Below, in pieces: positions 8,958 through 64,000 of a stretch of 64,000 nt of DNA. The stretch spans positions 511 through 64,510 of the forward strand of contig DASXTQ010000084.1 in NCBI GenBank assembly GCA_036505295.1, given 5' to 3'. The position numbers were made by a program, and so were the translations under genes. The notes under the pieces are model-generated. The model did no database searches. It was given only the letters and a program-made list of their open reading frames with translations, and was not told the origin of the DNA. The DNA is from Candidatus Eiseniibacteriota bacterium (lineage in GTDB: Bacteria > Eisenbacteria > RBG-16-71-46 > SZUA-252). Within the stretch, counting starts at the first letter, position 1, and each line of letters begins with the position of its first letter.

Positions 8958-10066
8958 GTGCGACTTCAGTCCATCGAGCTTCGCGAATTCCGGAACCACA
9001 GAGAGGCCAGGTTCGACCTGCGCGGGGATTCCGTGCTGGTTACGGGCGAAAACGGATCCGGCAAGACGAATCTCATCGAAGCCGTCGTGCTGCTCTCGAT
9101 CGGCAGGTCGTTCCGCGGCGCGCGCGATCCCGCGCTGACGCGGCGCGGTGCGGCCACGTTCGAGATTCGCGGGCTGGTGGAAGACCGGCTCGGGGTCACG
9201 AGCGAGATCGTCGCGCGCGGTGGGGCAGGGGCGGCAAAGGAAGTGCTTGTGGACGGCGCGCCTCCCGGCCGGATTTATGACCTTCTGGGACGGTTCTGCA
9301 CCGTCCACTTTTCGGTCGAGGATGTTGCGGTACTGAATGGCGGCCCGGCGTCGCGCCGGCGTTTTCTGGACGTGGCCCTCTGCCAGCTCGAATCGGCCTA
9401 CGTGGGGTCCCTCCGGGACTATACGGCGGCCTTGAGGCAGCGAAATCGTCTCCTGCTCGCCGAGCGGCATGGCCCCGGCACAGACCCAAACGAATGGTCG
9501 GCGTGGGAGGAAATCCTCGCGCGAACGGGAGTGGCGCTCGACCGTCGGCGGCGAACGCTCTGCGCGGAGATGGGTCGCAATCTTCGAGAGCTGTCCCAGC
9601 AGGTCGACCCGACCCTCGATCCGACGGTCGAATACCACGATGGATTCGGGGATTCCGGCACGTCGGAGGAGGAGGGGGTCGCGACCCGGCTCCAATTGTT
9701 CGAGAGGGCGCGCCTCCGCGATCGAAGAATGGGCTGGACGATGAACGGCCCGCACCGGGCGCGGCTTCACTGCGCGATCGGGGGAGAGGAGCTCTCGGAC
9801 GGCGCCTCCCGCGGGTATTCGAGGCTCTACTCGATTCTCCTTCGGCTCGCGCTCGCGCGCGTGTTCGAGGAGCGTCAGAACGACCCGCCGGTGGTTCTTC
9901 TCGACGATCCGGAATCGGAGCTCGATCCTCGCTGGATCGGCAGGGTCTTGAAGCTCGTTCCGGAATCGAGCCAGCTGGTCGTGACCGCGTGCCGGGAGCT
10001 TTCGGAGACGCCGTCGCGCTATCGCCGGCTTCCGATCGACGCGGCCGCGCTTGCGTGGAGCGCCGC

Positions 10067-53980: not shown

Positions 53981-55171
53981 CTATTGACCAAGCAAAATAG
54001 TCACGCTATCGCTCTCGAGGTTACTCGCGGCCAAGTCGGGCTTGCCGTCCCTGTTCACGTCGTCGACCGCGAGTTGCCATACCCCTTTGCCCCTTGCGAC
54101 CGGCGATCGCTGCGCTGGCTTGAACCCGCCCCGCCCGTCGCCGAGTAGAACGCGCACCCCGTCGCCCGCCGCCGCGGCCACGTCGGGCTTGCCATCCCCG
54201 TTCAGGTCCGCGACGGCGACGTGCCAGGCCGCATGGCCCAGGTCGAACGGCGAGCCGGTCACCTCCGTGAAGCCGCCCTTGCCGTCACCGAGCAGGACCG
54301 TCAGCTCTCTGCGCTCGGCATGAGTCACCGCCAGGTCCGGCTTGCGGTCGCCGTTCACGTCGGCGACGGCCACGAACCACGGCAGCACGGTCCGCAGCGG
54401 GATGCGGCCACCGCGAAAGCCGCCCCGCCCGTCGCCGAACAACACCGTCAACGCGCGCGTCGACGCCTCTTGCTCGTGGGTGCGGCGGCCCGTGCTGGTA
54501 GCGATGATGTCGAGGTGGCCGTCACCGTTGAGGTCGCCCAGCGCGCCCGGATACGGGCTGGGCCCAACGGCGAATGGGGACGGCGCGCGGGTGAGGCCGC
54601 CCTTGCCGTCGCCGAAGGCGATCGACACGTCGTTGTCCTCGCTGTTGACGGTGACGAGGTCGAGCTTGCCGTCGTCGTTCAGGTCACCGGCAAGGAGCCC
54701 GTGCGTATGCGGGTGCTGGCCCTCCTTCATGATCACGGGTGATTGGGGCGCGAGGGCGAAGCCGCCCTTGCCATCCCCGAAGAGGAGCGTCACCCGGTAG
54801 CTGTCGTGGTGGGCGAGCGCCAGGTCCAGATCGCCGTCGCCGTTCAGGTCGCGCAGGACCATTTCGGTGGGACGGTCGGGCACTTGGATCGGGCTCCCAG
54901 GCGCGGCGCGAAACCGCCCATCGCCTTGGCCGAAGAGCACGGTAATGCCGCGCCCGTTCGCCACTATGAGGTCAGGTTTCCCGTCATGATTCACGTCACC
55001 GAGGGCGACGTTCCCCGGCGCGCCCGCGACGCCAATGGGCGAGTCGGGCGCGGGCGCAAACAGGGGCCGCTCGGCCCGCGGTGCGGTACAGGCACTGAGG
55101 AGAGCCGCGGCGAGCACCGTCGCGATGAGAGGCCATCGACCGCAGCGCTGTCTCGCCACTGCTAACGCCAC
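53981..55171 (-). CDS. FG-GAP/VCBS repeat beta-propeller lipoprotein
   Basis: Seven repeats of DxNxDGxxD...LLGxGxGxF. Lipobox LLSACTA. Confidence 0.7.
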   Translation of the reverse strand: MALAVARQRCGRWPLIATVLAAALLSACTAPRAERPLFAPAPDSPIGVAGAPGNVALGDVNHDGKPDLIVANGRGITVLFGQGDGRFRAAPGSPIQVPDRPTEMVLRDLNGDGDLDLALAHHDSYRVTLLFGDGKGGFALAPQSPVIMKEGQHPHTHGLLAGDLNDDGKLDLVTVNSEDNDVSIAFGDGKGGLTRAPSPFAVGPSPYPGALGDLNGDGHLDIIATSTGRRTHEQEASTRALTVLFGDGRGGFRGGRIPLRTVLPWFVAVADVNGDRKPDLAVTHAERRELTVLLGDGKGGFTEVTGSPFDLGHAAWHVAVADLNGDGKPDVAAAAGDGVRVLLGDGRGGFKPAQRSPVARGKGVWQLAVDDVNRDGKPDLAASNLESDSVTILLGQ

Positions 55172-55177
55172 AGGAAA

Positions 55178-55693
55178 CTAGCCAGGCTGACCGTCGATCA
55201 GCCGTCGTTGATCGCGAATGCTGTCAACGCGAGACAATTTCCAGCCCTCAGAAGTCCTTCTCCAGATCTCGCGCTGCGTGACCCATGTCTCCACATGGTG
55301 CACCAGACCGTCATTCCGGCGCGCGATTCGGTCGGCATGCTGGCGTACGACCGCACGCGCGAGGTCGCCGGAGACTTCGAGGCTATCGATCTCGAAGGTC
55401 AGCGAAATCCAGCGGTCGATTCCATCAAGGAGCGCGCGGGTGGATTTCTCCATCTCGGCGCGGTAGTGCAGCACGCTGTCCGGGGTCACGGCGTGAAAGT
55501 CTTCTGTTCGGAGCGCCATGATGGCGTTGAAATCCTTTGCGAGGAAGGCGCGTCGATTTTCGTCATACCGCTGCTGCAGCTCGCGCCGAACGGCGGCCGA
55601 ATCCAGTGTGCTCAGGTGCTGTGAGGGGGGCGATTTGGCAGGACCAGCGCAACCCATCGCGCAGACCATGGCCATCGCCAGGAAGAAACGCAT
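55178..55693 (-). CDS. SnoaL-like/NTF2-like (DUF4440-type) lipoprotein
   Basis: Start MRFFLAMAMVCAMGCAG at 55693. About 170 aa with an alpha+beta cone pattern. Confidence 0.45.
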   Translation of the reverse strand: MRFFLAMAMVCAMGCAGPAKSPPSQHLSTLDSAAVRRELQQRYDENRRAFLAKDFNAIMALRTEDFHAVTPDSVLHYRAEMEKSTRALLDGIDRWISLTFEIDSLEVSGDLARAVVRQHADRIARRNDGLVHHVETWVTQREIWRRTSEGWKLSRVDSIRDQRRLIDGQPG

Positions 55694-55739
55694 CGCGGGC
55701 ACTATTCTGATCACCCACCAAGAAGATAGCAAAACGTCC

Positions 55740-55768
55740 TTGACAACTGCACAAATGTGCACTATCCT
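55740..55768 (+). promoter_or_regulatory. lexA promoter (TTGACA-N17-TATCCT) with an embedded palindrome TGCACAAATGTGCA (55748-55761), candidate LexA operator
   Basis: Read directly. The perfect TGCNC-N4-GNGCA palindrome overlaps the spacer. The lexA ATG is 8 nt after the -10 element. Confidence 0.6.
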
Positions 55769-55775
55769 ATGTGTC

Positions 55776-56516
55776 ATGAGCAAGCCCAATCCGCCCAGGA
55801 CGCCGGGGGGTGCCCGGAAACGCAAGCCCAAGCGGTTTGCCGCGATCGACATGGGGGCCGATCGCGAGCAGGCGGTCCTCGACATGATCGCGGGGTCGCT
55901 TCGCGAGCAGGGCCGGCCGCCCACGATTCGTGAAATCGGGGAAGCCTTCGGGATCGCCTCGACGAACGGGGTCCGCTACTACCTGGACCGCCTCGAGCGG
56001 GCGGGGAAGATCCACCGGGACCGATGGACCTCGCGTGGGATCGAGCTCAAGGCGATCCCGGGAGGCGCCGCCGCGAGAGCATCCGTCCCCGCGGTCCGTC
56101 CCATTCCCGAACACACCACCCCACGCAACGCGATCGAAATTCCATTGCTGGGCCGCGTGGCCGCCGGCGCGCCGATTCTCGCCGAGGAAAACGTAGAGGA
56201 CGTGCTCATCGTAGACGGCGCGTTCGTGCGGCCCGGCAAGCATTTCGCTCTCCGCGTGCGTGGGGACAGCATGAAGAACGCGGGGATCCTGGATGGCGAC
56301 ATCGCGATCGTGCACCACGACGCGCCGGTCAAAAGCGGAGAGATCGCGGTCGTGGTGATCGGCGAGGAAGCGACCGTGAAGCGCTTCTTTCCGCGCCGCG
56401 ACAAGCTCCTCCTGATCCCTGAGAACGAGGACTACGAGCCGATCGAGGTGCGTCCGTCCGATCCGGAAGTGCGGGTCGCGGGCAAGGTGGTGGGGGTTTT
56501 CCGGAGGCTTGGCTGA
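55776..56516 (+). CDS. lexA: SOS repressor LexA (S24 peptidase) with a basic N-terminal extension
   Basis: wHTH, an Ala-Gly cleavage site (VAAGAP), and the Ser (GDSM) and Lys (VKRF) catalytic dyad. Confidence 0.9.
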   Translation: MSKPNPPRTPGGARKRKPKRFAAIDMGADREQAVLDMIAGSLREQGRPPTIREIGEAFGIASTNGVRYYLDRLERAGKIHRDRWTSRGIELKAIPGGAAARASVPAVRPIPEHTTPRNAIEIPLLGRVAAGAPILAEENVEDVLIVDGAFVRPGKHFALRVRGDSMKNAGILDGDIAIVHHDAPVKSGEIAVVVIGEEATVKRFFPRRDKLLLIPENEDYEPIEVRPSDPEVRVAGKVVGVFRRLG

Positions 56517-56812
56517 TGGTCCATGCGAACTCATTTCCCAAGGCAAGCGACGGTTACTTCATGATCGAGTCGATCCACGATCCCATCGAAGTCATCACGA
56601 TGTTCGGAAACGGGAAGATGCGTCCCATCCGATTCCGCTGGAAGAACAAGATCGTGAAGGTGGCCAAGGTGACGGGCGATTGGGTTCGCCACGAGGGGCA
56701 GAACAAGATCCACTACTTCGCGCTCCTGGCGGACAGCTCGGATTACTACGAGATCTGCTACAACGCGAAGGACATGACCTGGCAGCTCACCCGCGTTTGG
56801 ATGGAAGGGTGA
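56516..56812 (+). CDS. hypothetical 98-aa protein translationally coupled between lexA and dinB
   Basis: ATG overlaps the lexA stop (TGATG). Ends 6 nt before the dinB GTG. Lys/Asn/Tyr-rich and lower GC (~50% in the first 60 nt). No recognisable family. Confidence 0.55.
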   Translation: MVHANSFPKASDGYFMIESIHDPIEVITMFGNGKMRPIRFRWKNKIVKVAKVTGDWVRHEGQNKIHYFALLADSSDYYEICYNAKDMTWQLTRVWMEG

Positions 56813-56818
56813 CAGGCG

Positions 56819-58015
56819 GTGCGGGTCGTTCTGCACCTCGACATGGACTCGTTTTTCGCCTCGGTGGAGGAGAAGCTGAACCCGCGCCTCAAGGGGAAGC
56901 CGATCCTCGTGGGTGGCACCGAGCGGCGCGGTGTCGTCGCCTCGGCGAACTACGCGGCGCGCCCGTTCGGGATCCACGCCGGTATGCCCATGGCGGAGGC
57001 GAAACGGCTCTGCCCGCACGCGGTCTTCGTCGAGGGTAACCCGCAGAAGTACGTCCACACCTCGCTCCAAGTCCTCGACGTTCTGAAGAGCTTCACCCCC
57101 GCGGTCGAGCCCTTCAGCATCGATGAGGCGTTCCTCGATCTCACCCAGGTCCCGTATGCGGGGAAGCCAGGCGCGGAGGAGCGCGATCCCGCTGTGATCC
57201 TCGACTCCGCGATCCCGGTCGCCCACGCGATCCAGCGCGCGGTCCAGCGACGCGTCGGACTCACCGCCACGATCGGCATCGCGCCCAACAAATACATCGC
57301 GAAGATGGCGAGCGGCGTGCAGAAGCCGCGCGGCCTCACGGTGCTGACGCTCGAACGATACCGGGAGCGTTTCTGGGGCCGCAGCGTCCAGGAGCTGTGG
57401 GGGATTGGCGAGAAGACTAGGGAAGCGCTCGCCAAACTCGGGATCCGGACCATCGGGCAGCTCGCGAAATTCCCGCGTGAGTTTCTCACGTACCACTTCG
57501 GGTTGAACGGCGAGAACATGCAGGAGGCGGCTCTCGGTCGCGACGAGAACGCGGTCGTTCCGTACTACGAGGGGATCCCGGTAAAATCGATGGGGCACGA
57601 GATCACGCTTTCGGAGGACGTCGCCGACAAAGACGCGCTCTCAGCGCAGCTTCTTCGCCTGAGCGACATGGTCGGGCGGCGGCTCCGAGCGGACCACTAC
57701 CTGGGAAGGATCATCTCGGTGAAGATCCGCGATGCGAAATTCCGCACCACAATCCGCCAGCGCGCGCTTCCCTCGGTCATAGACGACGAGCACGAGATTT
57801 TCCACACGGCTTCGTTGCTGCTCGAGGAGCACTGGGACGGGCGGCCGTTGCGGTTGATCGGCGTGTCGGTCTCGGGGTTGGTCTCGGCCGAAGGACATTA
57901 CCAGCACAGCCTCTTCGACCAGGACGAGCATCGGCGGAAAATGCTCGAAGCGGTGGATTCTTTGCGGGATCGCTTCGGAGAGCACGCTCTCGTGAAGGCG
58001 GGAGTGCTCTGGTGA
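56819..58015 (+). CDS. dinB: DNA polymerase IV (Y-family translesion polymerase)
   Basis: GTG start. LHLDMDSFFASVE catalytic DxD, and a little-finger domain. Confidence 0.9.
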   Translation: MRVVLHLDMDSFFASVEEKLNPRLKGKPILVGGTERRGVVASANYAARPFGIHAGMPMAEAKRLCPHAVFVEGNPQKYVHTSLQVLDVLKSFTPAVEPFSIDEAFLDLTQVPYAGKPGAEERDPAVILDSAIPVAHAIQRAVQRRVGLTATIGIAPNKYIAKMASGVQKPRGLTVLTLERYRERFWGRSVQELWGIGEKTREALAKLGIRTIGQLAKFPREFLTYHFGLNGENMQEAALGRDENAVVPYYEGIPVKSMGHEITLSEDVADKDALSAQLLRLSDMVGRRLRADHYLGRIISVKIRDAKFRTTIRQRALPSVIDDEHEIFHTASLLLEEHWDGRPLRLIGVSVSGLVSAEGHYQHSLFDQDEHRRKMLEAVDSLRDRFGEHALVKAGVLW

Positions 58016-58043
58016 TGCGGGCGTCTGCGACGAGGTCCTGCCC

Positions 58044-58955
58044 ATGATCCTCCTCGGGACTTCGGGGTATTCCTACCCGGACTGGTACGGGGTGTTCTAC
58101 CCGCCGGGCCTCGAGCGCGCGAAGCAGCTCGACTTCTACGTCCGCCAGTTCAAGACGGTCGAGGTCAACTCGACGTATTACCGGATTCCGCCTCCATCGA
58201 CATTCGCAGCCATGGAACGGAAGACGCCCGCAGATTTCGAGTTCGTCGTGAAGGCGCACTCCGAGATGACCCACAAGCAGACGCGCGACCCCGAGGTGTA
58301 CGAGGCGTTCCAGGCAGCGATGGCACCCCTGCGCACGGCGCGGAAGCTGAGCGGCGTGCTCGCGCAGTTTCCCCAATCATTCCATCGGTCGGATGACCAC
58401 GAGCAGTTCCTCGTGGAGATGCAGGAGCGCCTGGAGGGCGCCCCGCTCTTCGTCGAGTTTCGGCACAACTCGTGGATGAAGGAGGACGTGTTCGAGTTCC
58501 TGGAGCGCGCGAGCCTGGGATACGTCAGCGTGGACGAGCCTTCGCTTCCCGGGCTCCTCCCGCCCGTCGCTCGCGCGACAGGGGCGCTCGCCTACGTCCG
58601 ATTTCACGGGCGGAATGCGAAAAGCTGGTACTCGGGAGATGAGGGCGGCGGCAAAGGTGCGGGGACCGGAGGCGCGGGGACCCGAGGTGCGGGGGCCCGA
58701 GACGCAGGGACCAGAGACAGCACTCCCGCGCGCCCAGCCCGCGACCGGCAGCTCCTTCGTTACGACTATCTCTACTCCGAGGCGGAGCTCAAGGAGTGGG
58801 CGGATAAGATCCGCGATCTGAATCAGAAGACTCAGAAGACCTTCGTCTTCTTCAACAATTGTCACGCAGGGCAGGCCGCGACCAGCGCCAAGCTCATGCG
58901 CACTCTTCTTGGAATGGCTGAGCCGAACGTGGCAGAACAGACAGGACTCTTGTGA
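58044..58955 (+). CDS. DUF72 (YecE/UPF0759) family protein with a Gly-rich low-complexity insertion
   Basis: N-terminal MILLGTSGYSYPDWYGVFYP, typical of DUF72. Confidence 0.75.
   Translation: MILLGTSGYSYPDWYGVFYPPGLERAKQLDFYVRQFKTVEVNSTYYRIPPPSTFAAMERKTPADFEFVVKAHSEMTHKQTRDPEVYEAFQAAMAPLRTARKLSGVLAQFPQSFHRSDDHEQFLVEMQERLEGAPLFVEFRHNSWMKEDVFEFLERASLGYVSVDEPSLPGLLPPVARATGALAYVRFHGRNAKSWYSGDEGGGKGAGTGGAGTRGAGARDAGTRDSTPARPARDRQLLRYDYLYSEAELKEWADKIRDLNQKTQKTFVFFNNCHAGQAATSAKLMRTLLGMAEPNVAEQTGLL
58657..58716. repeat. four imperfect 15-bp tandem repeats (gYgcgggRRcccgag-like) encoding a (GAGTR)n linker inside the DUF72 gene
   Basis: Read directly. Confidence 0.6.
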
Positions 58956-59137
58956 TGGTCGCTCTGCGTGCGCTGACGGTGGCCGAGCGCTCGCCTGATT
59001 ACGCCACCCCGCCCCGCCTGCTTGCGGTCACGCCATCGCCCTGGCCTTGCGAACGCCGCCCTCGGCTGTCTTTGTCTGTGCCACATACGCCGGCCCCGCC
59101 GCCTCCTCCGGCCAACCACCCCGGTACAGGTGATGCC

Positions 59138-60337
59138 ATGCCGAACTATTCATTGACCCACCTTGGTGACGCGGACCTCGTTCGTCAGCTTGCCGCGCTG
59201 GTGAATCGGGACCGCGCGACCACGGCCATGCTGCTGGCCCACATCGCCGAAGTGGACGATCGTGGGTTGTACCGGCCCCCTGGATACCCCTCCATGCACG
59301 CCTACTGCATGGGGGAGTTGCGGTTCTCAGAGGACGCCGCCTACAAGCGAATCCGTGCGGCGCGCGCGGGACGCAAATTTCCAGTGCTGTTCGCGGCGCT
59401 TGCCGACGGTCGGTTCCATCTGGCGGCCCCCTACTTGCTGGCACCTCACTTCACTCTGGAGAACGTGGACGAGCTGATACAGGCGGCCACACACCGGAGC
59501 AAATCCGACATCGAAGAGCTGATCGCCCGGCGATTCGGTGTCCCTGGATCGCCGATCAGCCTGCGTCCGTTGATCCGCGCTGTCGCGCCGATCCCTCCTC
59601 CGACGCCCAGCGCCCAGCTCATGACGGCAACCGGGAACGACGATTCGCCTGCAGGGGAGTCCCTGACGTGCGATACGCAGCTGGCGATGGCGCCAGAGCC
59701 ATCCCATCAGAAGGACTACGGACAACTGGCCCCGGGGCCAGTTGAGGGCACTCAAGTCCAATCCCTGTCTCAGAATTGCCCAGTGTTTCTCGTAAGGCTC
59801 ACGGTTCCGAAGAGCACGTGCGACAAGCTGCACTACGCCCAGTCGCTGCTCAGCCATGCGGTGCCTGCGGGGGACCTGGCCCAAGTTTTCGACCGGGCCC
59901 TGGACGCTCTGATCTCACAACTCGAGGTGCGGAAGCTTGGTGCCAGTACTCGCGACCTGCGGGGTCGTGAGGAGCACGCGCCGGCGTCTGGCGTAGGCAG
60001 GGCGTCCCGCTACATTCCCGCCGCGGTCCGACGCGCGGTCTGGGAGCGCGATCAAGGGCGCTGCACCTTCGTCAGCATCACCGGAGGCCGATGCAGGTCT
60101 CGCCGATTCCTGGAAATGGATCACGTTGTACCGGCCGCTCGAGGTGGGAAGGCGACGATGGAGAACCTCCGGCTGAGATGCAGCGCGCACAACCAGTACG
60201 AGGCGGAGCGCGCGTTCGGGGTGGATTTCATAAGACGCAAGCGCCAGGAGGCGTTCGCGACGGCCACGGCTCGCGATCTCTCCAAGGCTCCCGCCGCACC
60301 CTCCGCCGCCGAAGAGAACCGCGAGGATCCAGCATGA
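59138..60337 (+). CDS. HNH endonuclease with an N-terminal DUF222-like domain (REP13E12-type architecture)
   Basis: C-terminal HNH (CTFVSITGGRC...LEMDHVVPAARGG...CSAHNQYEAER). The N-terminal helical region resembles DUF222. Likely start is MPNYSLT at 59138. The stop overlaps the next start (ATGA). Confidence 0.7.
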   Translation: MPNYSLTHLGDADLVRQLAALVNRDRATTAMLLAHIAEVDDRGLYRPPGYPSMHAYCMGELRFSEDAAYKRIRAARAGRKFPVLFAALADGRFHLAAPYLLAPHFTLENVDELIQAATHRSKSDIEELIARRFGVPGSPISLRPLIRAVAPIPPPTPSAQLMTATGNDDSPAGESLTCDTQLAMAPEPSHQKDYGQLAPGPVEGTQVQSLSQNCPVFLVRLTVPKSTCDKLHYAQSLLSHAVPAGDLAQVFDRALDALISQLEVRKLGASTRDLRGREEHAPASGVGRASRYIPAAVRRAVWERDQGRCTFVSITGGRCRSRRFLEMDHVVPAARGGKATMENLRLRCSAHNQYEAERAFGVDFIRRKRQEAFATATARDLSKAPAAPSAAEENREDPA

Positions 60338-62838
60338 TCAGTAATCGCACTCATCCCGCACAGCAGGCCGTCGGCCTCAGCGAATTATTCGAGCCTGAGC
60401 CGCGACCCATGGTGACGAGCGTCGAATCAGTCGAGGAATTCCGGGCAATGCTGCTCGCGCTTCAAGAGGGCGGGGCGCGCGGGTCGGGCCGTGGGCGTGG
60501 CGCCACGAGCCCCAACGGTGCACACTCTCGCATTGGCGAGCGTACCGTACGCAACCCGCGACCCTACGATCAGCCCGAGCTTGTCCACGCGGAATCGCTC
60601 CCCGCGCGCCCCGCGCGCTACGCCGATCTCGCCGAGCCGCTTCCTCGCGCGCTCGCGCACGTCCTCGCCGCACAGGGGATCGCCCGCCTCTACGCGCACC
60701 AAGCGCAGGCGATCGACCTCGCGCGCGCGGGGAAACACGTCGTCGTCGCGACCGGCACCGCTTCGGGGAAATCGCTCGCGTATCACATCCCGGTTCTCGA
60801 GCGTCTTCTCCTCGAGCAGCCGGCCACCGCGCTCTATCTCTTCCCGACGAAGGCGCTCGCGCAGGATCAGCTTCGGGGGCTGCACCGATTCGCGGACGGC
60901 TCGCACGACCTCGCGCGCGTGCTCGCGACCGGTTCCTACGATGGGGACACGCCGGGCTCGGCACGGAGGAAGCTCCGCGAAACCGGAAACGCGATTCTCA
61001 CGAACCCCGACATGCTTCACCAGGGGATCCTCCCGTACCACGCGCGCTGGGGGCGGTTCTTCACGAACCTCCGTTACGTTGTCGTGGACGAAGTGCACAC
61101 ATACCGCGGCATCTTCGGCTCGCACGTGGCGAACGTGCTCCGGCGGCTCAGGCGCATCGCGCGACACTACGGCGCGGAGCCTCAGTTCCTCTGCTCCTCG
61201 GCCACACTCCGGAACCCTCAAGAGCTGGCAGAGCTTCTGGTCGGCGACGACGTCCACGTCGTCGATCAGGACGGCTCACCGCGCGGCCCCAAGCTCTTTG
61301 CCTTCTGGAATCCACGCACGTACGGGCCCGACTCACCCGAGCGCCGGAGTGCCTCCATCGATGCCGAGCGGATGCTGGTCGCGCTGCTCCGGCGCGGAGT
61401 GCAGTCCATCGTGTTCACGAAGGCGCGGGTCGTCGCCGAGCTGATCTACCGTTACGCCCGCGAGCGCCTGGAGCGCGAATCGCGCGGACTGGCGGACCTC
61501 TTGAGCCCCTACCGCGGCGGCTACCTACCCGAGGAGCGCCGCGCCATCGAGCGGCGCCTCTTCGACGGGGAGCTTCGCGGCGTGATCTCGACCAACGCGC
61601 TCGAGCTGGGCATCGACGTCGGCACCCTCGACGCCTCGATTCTGGTCGGTTTCCCGAACACGATCGCAAGCACGTGGCAGCAGGCGGGGCGCTCGGGCCG
61701 GAAGCAGGCGCCTTCGCTCGCGGTCGTGGTCGCGTACGAGGATCCGGTCGACCAGTACCTCATGCGGCATCCGAGCTACTTCTTCGGACAGTCGCCGGAG
61801 AGCGCGGTGCTGGACCCGGAGAATCCCTATGTGCTCGCCTCGCAGCTTTCCTGCGCTGCCTACGAGCTGCCGCTGAGCGAGGAGGACGAGGCGATATTCG
61901 GAAGCCGCGCGCCCGCGATCGCGTCGCTCCTCGAGGAGGAGGGTTCGTTCAAGTCCCTCGACGGCCTCCGCTACTGGTCCTCGGCCGAGTACCCGGCGGG
62001 CAGCGTGAACCTGCGCACCATCTCCGACGACACGTTCACCATCCTCGACCAGACGCGCGAGAACGCGGTGCTCGGCACGGTCGATTCGATCAGCGCGCCG
62101 GAGCTGTTATATCCAGAAGCAATCTATCTTCACGAAGGCGACACCTATTTCGTCCGCGATCTTGATTTAAAGCAAAAGATTGCCTACGTCGAGCCGCGCG
62201 AGGTGGACTACTACACGCAGCCTGTGCTCGACACGCACCTGAAGCTCGAGGAGACGCGCGAATCGAAGAAGCTCGGAGACGAGACGATCGGGCTTGGACC
62301 TGCCGGAGTCTCCTGGGCGACCGTCGCGATGAAGAAGATTCGCTTCCGGAGTCTCGATGCAATCGGCTATCACCCGCTCGACCTTCCGCGGCAGAAATTG
62401 GACACGATGGCGCTTTGGATTCAGCCCTCCGAGGGCACGCGAAACCATGTCAAGATCGCAGGGCTCAACCCGCGCGAGGGGATGTCGGGGCTACGAAACC
62501 TCCTCATCACGGTGCTGCCGCTCCACGTCATGTGCGACCGGCCCGATATCGGCGGGATCCTGGACAGAGCCAACCTCGGCGAGCCGACCATCTTCATGTA
62601 CGACCGCTACCCTGGCGGTTTGGGGTACGCCGAGCGCGGATACGCGATCGTCGGGGAGCTGTTGAGCGCGTCGCTCCGGCTGGTCGAGGACTGCCCGTGC
62701 GAGCTGGGATGCCCCTCTTGCGTGGGGCTCCCGATCATGCGGCCCGCGCAGCAGCAGGATCCCGATTTGTATGGCGGCTGGCCGATCCCAAGCAAGGCCG
62801 CGACCCTGGCACTGTTGCGGCGGATGCTCGGCCGGTGA
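60334..62838 (+). CDS. mrfA: MrfA/YprA-like DEXH-box helicase with a C-terminal DUF1998 Cys4 domain
   Basis: Walker A GTASGKS, DEVH box, helicase C, and a C-terminal CPCELGCPSC zinc cluster. Alternative start at 60409. Confidence 0.8.
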   Translation: MISNRTHPAQQAVGLSELFEPEPRPMVTSVESVEEFRAMLLALQEGGARGSGRGRGATSPNGAHSRIGERTVRNPRPYDQPELVHAESLPARPARYADLAEPLPRALAHVLAAQGIARLYAHQAQAIDLARAGKHVVVATGTASGKSLAYHIPVLERLLLEQPATALYLFPTKALAQDQLRGLHRFADGSHDLARVLATGSYDGDTPGSARRKLRETGNAILTNPDMLHQGILPYHARWGRFFTNLRYVVVDEVHTYRGIFGSHVANVLRRLRRIARHYGAEPQFLCSSATLRNPQELAELLVGDDVHVVDQDGSPRGPKLFAFWNPRTYGPDSPERRSASIDAERMLVALLRRGVQSIVFTKARVVAELIYRYARERLERESRGLADLLSPYRGGYLPEERRAIERRLFDGELRGVISTNALELGIDVGTLDASILVGFPNTIASTWQQAGRSGRKQAPSLAVVVAYEDPVDQYLMRHPSYFFGQSPESAVLDPENPYVLASQLSCAAYELPLSEEDEAIFGSRAPAIASLLEEEGSFKSLDGLRYWSSAEYPAGSVNLRTISDDTFTILDQTRENAVLGTVDSISAPELLYPEAIYLHEGDTYFVRDLDLKQKIAYVEPREVDYYTQPVLDTHLKLEETRESKKLGDETIGLGPAGVSWATVAMKKIRFRSLDAIGYHPLDLPRQKLDTMALWIQPSEGTRNHVKIAGLNPREGMSGLRNLLITVLPLHVMCDRPDIGGILDRANLGEPTIFMYDRYPGGLGYAERGYAIVGELLSASLRLVEDCPCELGCPSCVGLPIMRPAQQQDPDLYGGWPIPSKAATLALLRRMLGR

Positions 62839-63725
62839 TCTCCCAGGCGCTGCGGCAACGCATCGGGGAGATGCTCCGGGACGAGGCTCAAGTTGGTCGC
62901 GCCGGCGCGACGCTCGACCCCGCCGTGCGCCGCCCGCGCGAACCGCGGATCGTGCCCGCTTCGATCGAGGACATTCTCCCAGGCGGCGTCATGATCGGGC
63001 GCGAGGGTGCTATGTTCGTGCACGAGCGCCTCTACACGGACCTGAACGAGCGGCCGACGCCGCTGCTCAAGAAGTACGAGCAGATCGGAAGGCTGCCGGA
63101 CCCCGACGAGGCTTCCATGCCCCGCACCCTCCCTGAAGCGATCGAGGCGCTCGATCCGCCCGAGCGAGGGCTCTTCCAGAAGTTCGGGCATCGCCGCATG
63201 CTGTTCCTCGATATCGAGACGTGCGGGCTCCAGTCGCAGCCTGTCTTTCTGGTCGGGCTCTGCCACATCGGGGAGAGGAATCTCGTCTTGCGCCAGCTAT
63301 TCGCGCGCGACTACGCCGAGGAACGCTGCCTGCTCGCCGAGGTGGAGCGGATTCTGGGCGAGCACGACTTTCTCGTCACCTACAATGGGAAGACCTTCGA
63401 CCTTCCGTTCCTGCGCCACCGCGCCGTGTACCACAGGCTGCGCTTCGAGACCCGGATCCCGCACCTCGACCTTCTCTGGATGGTGAGACGCCGCTGGAAG
63501 GATCGCCTGCCCGACTGCAGACTCAAGACGCTCGAATCGCGCGTCCTGCGGCGCCTGCGCGCCGGCGACATCGACGGCTCCGAGATTCCCGGCGCCTATC
63601 ACGAGTACGTGAAGCACGGCCAGCCGCACCGGCTCCTCCCCGTGTTCCACCACAACCTGCTCGACGTGGTCGCGATGGCGGAGCTGCTTCCGAAACTCTT
63701 CGAGCCGGACCCCGAAGTCTACTGA
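62835..63725 (+). CDS. mrfB: MrfB/YprB-like RNase H-fold 3'-5' exonuclease
   Basis: Motifs FLDIETCGL (DxE), YNGKTFDLPFL and HHNLLDVVAM (DEDDh). GTG at 62835 overlaps the mrfA stop (GTGA). Alternative ATG at 62871. Confidence 0.75.
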   Translation: MISQALRQRIGEMLRDEAQVGRAGATLDPAVRRPREPRIVPASIEDILPGGVMIGREGAMFVHERLYTDLNERPTPLLKKYEQIGRLPDPDEASMPRTLPEAIEALDPPERGLFQKFGHRRMLFLDIETCGLQSQPVFLVGLCHIGERNLVLRQLFARDYAEERCLLAEVERILGEHDFLVTYNGKTFDLPFLRHRAVYHRLRFETRIPHLDLLWMVRRRWKDRLPDCRLKTLESRVLRRLRAGDIDGSEIPGAYHEYVKHGQPHRLLPVFHHNLLDVVAMAELLPKLFEPDPEVY

Positions 63726-64000
63726 TAATCGACCATCCTCTCGACATCACGCGTACGGAGCGATTCGCCTAGATGACCGGCCGTGGCCCTCCTTTTGACG
63801 GCGTCGGGAGTCCGTCGCGGGCACGCGACCCCGCACCACCGCTAAAGCACGCCGGATGGCGGATGACCCAAAGGCACGCCGTTTGCAGAGCCGCTGTATC
63901 GTGCCGCGGCCGCTGCGCCCCTGCTTGCGTGACGAGCACGCGGATCACGACCCGCTGGATGGGTAAGCCCGTGGACGGGGTGGTCGGAGGGGGAGGCGGA

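Follow-up and report, generated by a model that had tools for sequence, protein, structure and literature searches.

The region at positions 55740–63725 of a 64-kb stretch of Candidatus Eisenbacteria DNA (contig DASXTQ010000084.1) was studied in this work. The whole 64-kb stretch is referred to as the window. The region consists of seven co-directional genes on the plus strand (lexA, orf98, dinB, a DUF72 gene, an HNH-family gene, mrfA, and mrfB; 55776–63725) that are preceded by a promoter with a palindromic candidate LexA operator. The initial annotation of the window had read this array as a tightly packed LexA-headed operon that joins DNA polymerase IV (Pol IV), DUF72, and MrfAB. That reading is supported here by comparative evidence, namely the conserved synteny of the genes and a putative operator that is found upstream of both lexA and dinB.

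Gene content and junctions

The domains of the encoded proteins were assigned with Pfam and NCBIfam profiles. The coordinates and the characteristics of the features are shown in Table 1. The open reading frames (ORFs) and the domains that had been named in the initial annotation were found, DUF222 excepted.

Table 1. Features of the locus in window coordinates, with profile scores in bits.
Feature	Coordinates	Strand	Characteristics
Promoter/operator cassette	55740..55768	+	−35 TTGACA (55740–55745); palindrome TGCACAAATGTGCA (55748–55761); −10 TATCCT (55763–55768)
lexA	55776..56516	+	246 amino acids (aa); TIGR00498 181 bits (cutoff 111); PF01726 and PF00717
orf98	56516..56812	+	Borderline Pfam DUF6504 (PF20114); stand-alone ImuB-C type
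dinB	56819..58015	+	IMS 163 bits; IMS_C 102 bits; PRK02406 294 bits (cutoff 256)
DUF72 gene	58044..58955	+	303 aa; PF01904 213 bits (cutoff 25.3)
HNH-family gene	58952 (GTG) or 59138 (ATG)..60337	+	PF01844 24.1 bits (cutoff 21.4)
mrfA	60334..62838	+	DEAD, Helicase_C, WHD_HRQ1, and MZB (78 bits)
mrfB	62835..63725	+	296 aa; RNase_H_2 (PF13482)

All junctions are tight. The orf98 start overlaps the lexA stop (TGATG), and gaps of 6 nucleotides (nt) and 28 nt follow orf98 and dinB, respectively. The HNH frame overlaps the DUF72 stop at GTGA (−4) when it is read from the GTG and begins 182 nt after that stop when it is read from the ATG. The HNH and mrfA genes overlap at ATGA, and mrfA and mrfB overlap at GTGA. 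The sequence agrees at every junction with the initial annotation, which had given the longer HNH spacing as about 180 nt. No structured RNA family reached its gathering score when the region was searched with Rfam.

Promoter and candidate LexA operator

The promoter scan, which detects sigma-70 consensus sites only, identified TTGACA-17-TATCCT as the sole sigma-70-like promoter in positions 55000–64000. Terminator-like sites are not in excess in the same interval (3 found, 4.2 expected from shuffled sequence). The single transcript that had been proposed initially is consistent with both results. The 14-mer TGCACAAATGTGCA is a perfect palindrome that fills the spacer between the −35 and −10 hexamers, and its match is unique in the window even at 3 mismatches. 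The lexA start was corrected from that of the initial annotation to the ATG at 55776, which is located only 7 nt past the −10 hexamer. This promoter geometry suggests that the transcript is probably leaderless or near-leaderless.

The exact 14-mer is located 28–43 nt 5' of the lexA ATG in relatives whose LexA identity is 64–100%, and the alignment exhibits conserved −35 and −10 hexamers around it. The same cassette (consensus cccTTGACAac-TGCACAAATGTGCA-(c/g)TATCnT) is reused and precedes lexA, orf98 genes that are detached from the array, and dinB in split loci. In these split loci, which are found in many Eisenbacteria, unrelated DNA parts lexA–orf98 from dinB–DUF72–mrfAB. The inserted genes lie mostly on the opposite strand and encode a methyltransferase, a Tag-like glycosylase, an HAD hydrolase, and membrane proteins. 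A second cassette was identified upstream of dinB in 15 loci that are either split or on a contig starting before dinB (13 exact, two with one mismatch). The second box is located about 70–80 nt upstream of dinB in every split locus and in the contigs that start just before dinB. Since the second cassette precedes dinB in the split loci and the detached orf98 genes carry a box of their own, each transcription unit appears to keep its own LexA operator.

The cassette was also searched in metagenomes with a pattern that required fixed −35 and −10 flanks, which yielded at least 126 matches in at least 120 stretches. Among the matches listed, the gene 3' of the cassette is lexA in at least 39 cases, orf98 in at least nine, and dinB in at least eight. 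At least eight further metagenome loci are split (L115, L132, L171, L173, L184, L195, L204, and L206; loci are denoted by L numbers), with the box followed by dinB and DUF72. Both mrfA and mrfB come after DUF72 where the contig is long enough. A 14-mer is expected by chance about 1e-4 times per 20-kb locus, yet this one precedes each unit, which is strong comparative evidence that dinB–DUF72–mrfAB shares the control of lexA.

The window box (TGCAC-N4-GTGCA) and the Gram-positive LexA box (GAAC-N4-GTTC) both have palindromic half-sites with the same 4-nt spacing. Either TGCACAAACGTTCA or TGAACAAATGTTCA is present upstream of lexA in related lineages, and these intermediates tie the TGCACAAATGTGCA box to the Gram-positive type. 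The window box also fits the LexA box of Fibrobacter succinogenes (TGCNC-N4-GTGCA). The comparative evidence points to autoregulation of lexA through a palindromic operator in its own promoter.

Several other observations concern the cassette. The cassette before dinB in L013 (about 1880–1960) and L016 (about 2760–2840) is a duplicate of the lexA promoter with a remnant of the first lexA codons (…tcATGatcaagc…), and these remnants reveal the way in which the operator was copied. On the minus strand of L025 (7166–8625) and L034 (6629–8085), genes for a methyltransferase and a Tag-like protein (resembling 3-methyladenine glycosylase I on visual inspection of the sequence) are divergent from the LexA-box dinB promoter, and the box could regulate both directions there. 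The cassette precedes small Cys-rich proteins in several dozen cases on contigs of lower guanine-cytosine fraction (0.37–0.58; L140, L163, L117, and L103 among L103–L222). These proteins of 55–131 aa end in …CPDCGxGMIRQGxCxxCPxCGFxSC, acquire no Pfam hit, and appear to form an unnamed zinc-ribbon family of small size that recurs together with SOS boxes. Among the matches listed, the gene after the cassette also encodes a Hel308-like helicase (DEAD, Helicase_C, archaeal helicase domain 4, and HhH) in L104, L130, L144, L154, L168, and L192, and an HD-domain protein in one contig (L120).

Conservation of the gene order

The DUF72 protein was used to scan one genome per species, which gave 80 loci, and the proteins of the window were then compared with all loci by tblastn. 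The closest loci belong to metagenome-assembled genomes (MAGs) of Candidatus Eisenbacteria. The order lexA–orf98–dinB–DUF72–mrfA–mrfB is kept across the phylum in 32 loci (L011–L041 and L048), whose DUF72 proteins are 50–81% identical to that of the window, and also in many metagenome contigs. The exact orf98 protein is present on at least 23 public contigs, all with the same gene order. The mrfA gene was found downstream of DUF72 in every Eisenbacteria-type locus that has sequence there. The chance juxtaposition that had been raised initially as an alternative does not agree with an order conserved in 32 species-level loci.

The remaining 48 loci are distant (39–50% DUF72 identity). The dinB gene is directly upstream of DUF72 in 15 of the 43 distant loci with at least 1.5 kb of upstream sequence. 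Four distant loci exhibit lexA–(ImuB-C)–dinB–DUF72, and the box before lexA is palindromic in three of them and degenerate in L050.

Two DUF4440/SnoaL-like genes were observed around lexA. One is a lipoprotein gene in the window (55178–55693, minus strand) that is divergent from lexA, with start codons 82 nt apart. The other encodes 128–129 aa and lies within the operon between lexA and orf98 in close relatives (L001 at 9568–9954, L002–L004, L006, L008, L010, and L024).

The repressor and translesion-synthesis genes

LexA acquires both required domains, namely the winged helix-turn-helix domain (PF01726, 52 bits) and the S24 peptidase domain (PF00717, 109 bits). The cleavage site VAA|G at residue 128, the Ser of GDSM (163), and the Lys of TVKR (200) are intact. 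LexA therefore looks functional as judged from its Ala-Gly site, its Ser/Lys dyad, and a TIGR00498 score above the cutoff. The lexA gene calls in relatives are also 246 aa long. The canonical DNA-binding domain follows a basic stretch of about 25 extra aa at the N-terminus (MSKPNPPRTPGGARKRKPKRF; 55776–55850), which is kept in relatives.

The DinB motifs are DMD (9–11), SIDEAF (100), and the beta-clamp motif QHSLF (362). By its domains and motifs, DinB is a catalytically competent Y-family DNA polymerase IV. Its C-terminal LEAVDSLRDRFG resembles the RecA-NT motif, as compared by eye with the description in PMC6511836.

The orf98 product is the best-conserved protein of the array (71–100% identity across Eisenbacteria loci). 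A profile search of 1.8 billion representative proteins identified 514 relatives, which are mostly about 83 aa long, are aligned from orf98 residue 16, and match Pfam DUF6504 at or just below threshold; DUF6504 is not mentioned in the literature searched. The AlphaFold2 (AF2) model is small and all-beta with six strands, and its predicted local distance difference test (pLDDT) score is 71.6. W89 is the sole invariant residue in an alignment of 60 sequences, and the PxRFxW motif is conserved. Three of the four distant orf98 homologues are encoded directly upstream of a Y-family polymerase gene. Residues 16–94 match an 84-aa ORF of the Geobacter anodireducens plasmid pSD (L099; tblastn, 36% identity, E 1e-5) that sits with overlapping junctions between lexA and a frameshifted dinB. 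This ORF is an analogue of GSU0042 and not GSU0042 itself.

The stand-alone ImuB-C proteins have been described as small and beta-rich with a conserved C-terminal Trp, and they are mostly encoded together with DinB and LexA (PMC3765255, PMC6511836). The order LexA→ImuBC→DinB has been published for Geobacter sulfurreducens GSU0041–43 (PMC3765255, PMC6511836). From this description and the Geobacter homologue, orf98 is assigned as a stand-alone ImuB-C domain protein. Since orf98 fits the description point by point, lexA–orf98–dinB is an already known module. The first three genes of the window share the gene order and the tight junctions of the Geobacter module, which encodes a 'GeoPolY-like' active polymerase. 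However, the window operon runs on into DUF72–(HNH)–mrfA–mrfB, its LexA box is TGCAC-N4-GTGCA, and its ImuB-C acquires a conserved N-terminal extension; the accessible part of the published supplement on the Geobacter module mentions neither DUF72 nor DUF1998. In umuDC and yqjX/yolD–yqjW/uvrX, a Y-family polymerase gene under SOS control is likewise coupled to a small-protein gene immediately before it, but ImuB-C is unrelated to both UmuD and YolD and has no peptidase motifs.

The N-terminal extension of the Eisenbacteria ImuB-C consists of 15 residues (56516–56560) that are absent from the wider family of about 83 aa, and F7, P8, G13, Y14, and F15 are invariant. It is disordered in the AF2 model and may be an interaction peptide.

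DUF72, MrfA, and MrfB

The DUF72 protein of the window is a strong member of the TM1631/YecE family, whose relatives are UVDE and endonuclease IV. It matches TM1631 (PDB 1VPQ) with E 7.5e-51 and exhibits a full-length family match. A 15-nt unit repeated about four times at 58655–58716 encodes a Gly-rich insert (GAGTGGAGTRGAGARDAGTRD) that breaks the TM1631 match and is variable among relatives. TM1631/DUF72 has been predicted computationally to be a DNA-repair nuclease similar to endonuclease IV and UVDE, and DUF72 is enriched near polB2 and lexA (PMC3828134, PMC4939058, PMC11791011). We hypothesise that the TIM-barrel protein of the window is a DNA-repair nuclease.

MrfA matches Bacillus subtilis YprA/MrfA (PDB 6ZNP) over residues 86–801 with E 2.7e-189. 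It has the motifs GTASGKS, DEVH, and QQAGRSGR and the four-Cys CPCELGCPSC, in agreement with the features by which Burby & Simmons define MrfA, and its TIGR03817 score is 751 bits, under the cutoff of 874. By these features it belongs to the MrfA/YprA/SftH/Hrq1 family of superfamily 2 (SF2) DEXH helicases and carries an MZB zinc domain at its C-terminus. MrfB matches B. subtilis MrfB (PDB 8UN9) with E 1.7e-17, and FLDIET, YNGKTFD, and HHNLLD are aligned as the DEDDh residues; by this alignment it is a DEDDh 3'-5' exonuclease. The window pair shares adjacent overlapping genes, a four-Cys MZB MrfA, and a DEDDh MrfB with B. subtilis mrfAB (yprAB). It differs in its placement downstream of a LexA box and after a coupled DUF72 gene. 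MrfB also differs from that of B. subtilis. Its exonuclease domain (117–284) follows an N-terminal extension of about 115 aa and ends 12 residues before the end of the protein, and the TPR domain that is C-terminal in B. subtilis MrfB was not detected with Pfam, which returned only RNase_H_2/exonuclease models.

Among 14 loci that have no HNH gene, 11 (the distant L050 included) have a DUF72 stop codon that overlaps the start codon of mrfA as GTGA or ATGA. This overlap suggests that DUF72–mrfA–mrfB is a translationally coupled trio. The lead for DUF72 function that had been seen initially in the array holds.

For B. subtilis MrfAB, the reported substrates are mono-adducts of mitomycin or its intrastrand crosslinks and not interstrand crosslinks, and the crosslink repair that the initial annotation had attached to the array was thus overstated. 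Its statement that mrfAB of B. subtilis is not damage-inducible was not confirmed in the literature searched. In the published model, MrfA unwinds and MrfB, which prefers linear ends, degrades the adducted strand. That model assigns no incision nuclease, and a genetic screen gave no other candidates.

A further observation concerns mrfB alone. The window mrfB is 91% identical to that of L001 and 66% identical to that of L005, whereas the other operon genes are closest to those of L005 (94–100%). This pattern suggests recombination inside the operon.

The HNH gene

The HNH frame is open from GTG 58952, and the start that the gene caller assigned in the closest relative corresponds to ATG 59138 (399 aa). 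The motifs DHVVP…N…HN are present. The initial annotation had labelled the product DUF222-HNH. This label is not supported by Pfam, since the window protein gives no PF02720 (DUF222) hit even at E ≤ 10 and only two of the 32 homologues give weak hits (best E 3e-4). Several mycobacterial REP13E12/DUF222-HNH genes are reported to be LexA-regulated. Proteins of the REP13E12 type resemble the window protein in their length of about 400 aa, their N-terminal helical region, their C-terminal HNH, and their membership of a dispersed multi-copy family. The window gene differs from them in being embedded in an operon instead of having its own SOS box, and in the Pfam result given above.

Only the closest clade (L001–L016, L102, and L160) carries the gene, which is absent from L017–L041 and occurs in six of the 32 species-level loci. 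Compared with the window copy, the HNH genes of this clade are 53–59% identical (98% for L005, which is the nearest relative), and the neighbouring genes are 80–90% identical. The family is very large, with more than 1,450 hits, and identities of 53–60% are common among them. Four long contigs carry homologues in unrelated contexts, and the homologue in L102 is in the same operon position. In a neighbour-joining tree without bootstrap support, the operon copies form at least two groups, and those of the L001/L002 type are placed together with copies from other, unrelated surroundings; this grouping is suggestive only. The HNH frame of the window-type loci opens at the GTGA/TGATG of the DUF72 stop, and its own stop overlaps the new mrfA ATG (ATGA), which indicates that the gene was inserted into the ancestral coupled junction with the coupling unbroken. 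The search for terminal repeats flanking the gene gave only short ones that are probably due to chance. We take the HNH gene to be dispersed and probably selfish, sharing SOS-linked expression instead of forming part of the repair core. Its place in the LexA-headed unit, as proposed initially, therefore holds for the window and does not hold for the ancestral operon, given six of 32 loci, the greater divergence, and the dispersed family.

An AlkD-like DNA_alkylation gene (PF08713) follows mrfB on the same strand in L102 (10482–11177) and may extend the repair operon there.

Discussion

Taken together, it is likely that the locus is one LexA-autoregulated SOS operon that consists of two older units and a later insertion, although LexA binding, induction by DNA damage, and a single transcript are parts of this reading that we infer from comparison. 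Unit 1 (lexA–ImuB-C–dinB) is the already known module of a repressor with translesion-synthesis genes. Unit 2 (DUF72–mrfA–mrfB) would be an excision-repair set of a putative incision nuclease, a 3'-5' helicase, and a 3'-5' exonuclease. The HNH gene would have entered the DUF72/mrfA junction in one sub-clade, where it takes the ancestral coupled start and would ride on SOS induction. A LexA dimer bound to TGCACAAATGTGCA between the −35 and −10 hexamers would block RNA polymerase. When DNA is damaged, RecA filaments on single-stranded DNA would stimulate the self-cleavage of LexA at Ala-Gly, the promoter would then fire to give the leaderless or near-leaderless polycistronic mRNA, and overlapping stop and start codons would couple translation along it.

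It could be argued that only lexA–orf98–dinB are controlled by LexA and that DUF72–HNH–mrfAB are expressed constitutively from an internal promoter, so that their link to the SOS response is merely positional. The literature searched contains no report of mrfAB (DUF1998/yprA) as SOS- or LexA-regulated genes, a promoter would have room in the 28-nt gap that precedes DUF72 or in the gap of up to 182 nt that precedes the HNH ATG, and the promoter scan is blind to sites that deviate from the sigma-70 consensus. We nevertheless regard this explanation as improbable. The LexA cassette of the split loci leads into dinB–DUF72–mrfA–mrfB with no other box, which means that a LexA box always precedes DUF72–mrfAB. 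In relatives that have no HNH gene, DUF72 and mrfA overlap at their stop and start codons, and the operon scan gave no internal promoter-like or terminator-like signal. A regulator different from LexA might use the palindrome as its operator, or the palindrome might be a promoter element only. The −35/−10 cassette around it is conserved in full, so that promoter and operator cannot be told apart by conservation alone, and neither recA nor uvrA is downstream of the exact cassette among the metagenome matches listed, where other SOS promoters would be missed with the fixed flanks that the pattern demanded. This explanation is quite unlikely, because the palindrome is a perfect inverted repeat with the half-site spacing of GAAC-N4-GTTC, is linked to that type by the two intermediates upstream of lexA in related lineages, and is found before lexA itself in dozens of lineages, a hallmark of autoregulation. 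Apart from lexA, the box precedes genes of DNA repair (dinB, ImuB-C, and the Hel308-like helicase).

The HNH–helicase–exonuclease part was also considered as an anti-phage defence module that lies beside the SOS genes by chance. DUF1998/MZB helicases occur in DISARM, Druantia, and Dpd, MrfA gave partial PADLOC hits to the BrxH, DruE, DrmA, and DpdF/J helicase cores, and the HNH nuclease adjoins a helicase gene. However, the PADLOC hits are confined to the generic SF2 core, and the full-length match of the helicase is B. subtilis MrfA/YprA (with the E value given above) with a partner that matches MrfB. No other defence-system components are present, and the HNH gene is missing from most relatives in which DUF72–mrfAB and the LexA box are constant. 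A defence system is thus very improbable, and it was rejected since PADLOC gave generic helicase-core hits only.

Several points weigh against the reading as a single SOS operon with a DUF72–MrfAB repair set. The mrfA gene is beside DUF72 in only two of the 48 distant loci (L050 and L068), and with adjacency so rare outside Eisenbacteria the partnership may be lineage-specific or mere co-regulation. The Bacillota dinB–DUF72 loci have no exact GAAC-N4-GTTC (Cheo) box upstream of dinB. An internal promoter that a sigma-70-only scan does not recognise could lie in the 182 nt that separate the DUF72 stop from the HNH ATG 59138. The neighbour-joining tree of the HNH gene is unbootstrapped. No experiments on YecE/DUF72 function are reported in the literature searched, and the organisms are all uncultured MAGs.

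The LexA-headed operon reading also suggests a role for DUF72. The DUF72 protein might be the missing incision nuclease of a UvrABC-independent excision repair of the MrfAB type that is wired through LexA with translesion synthesis in Eisenbacteria. DUF72 would nick at bulky adducts or at sites where Pol IV/ImuB-C stalls, MrfA would unwind in the 3'-5' direction, and MrfB would degrade the displaced strand. We put this proposal forward tentatively and consider it rather doubtful as it stands.

SOS regulons vary widely between phyla. LexA-regulated Pol IV, the lexA–ImuB-C–dinB module, the mrfAB pair, and DUF72 as a predicted repair nuclease are already known. The arrangement that the initial annotation had found unfamiliar is consequently familiar in its first three genes (PMC3765255, PMC6511836). 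Its extension into DUF72–mrfAB was not found in the literature searched, and neither were mrfAB under a LexA box, the coupled DUF72–mrfA junction, the recurrent dinB–DUF72 adjacency or coupling, and the Eisenbacteria cassette.

The findings in this work give a first comparative-genomics picture of an SOS promoter/operator cassette and its cargo in Candidatus Eisenbacteria, an uncultured soil phylum. They indicate that the MrfAB pair can sit under a LexA box outside Bacillus. The HNH gene is a case in which a selfish-type gene can enter a translationally coupled operon without disrupting it and gain SOS-linked expression. DUF72, for which solved structures are available, is tied to MrfA by overlapping codons and to Pol IV by recurrent adjacency, which leads to a testable role as an excision-repair nuclease. 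The locus also opens the incision step of MrfAB repair and the roles of DUF72 and ImuB-C to direct tests. An incision role of DUF72, if true, would give a function to a widespread domain of unknown function (Escherichia coli YecE and Thermotoga TM1631), and the dinB–DUF72 pairing in other phyla would then represent the same partnership of repair and tolerance.

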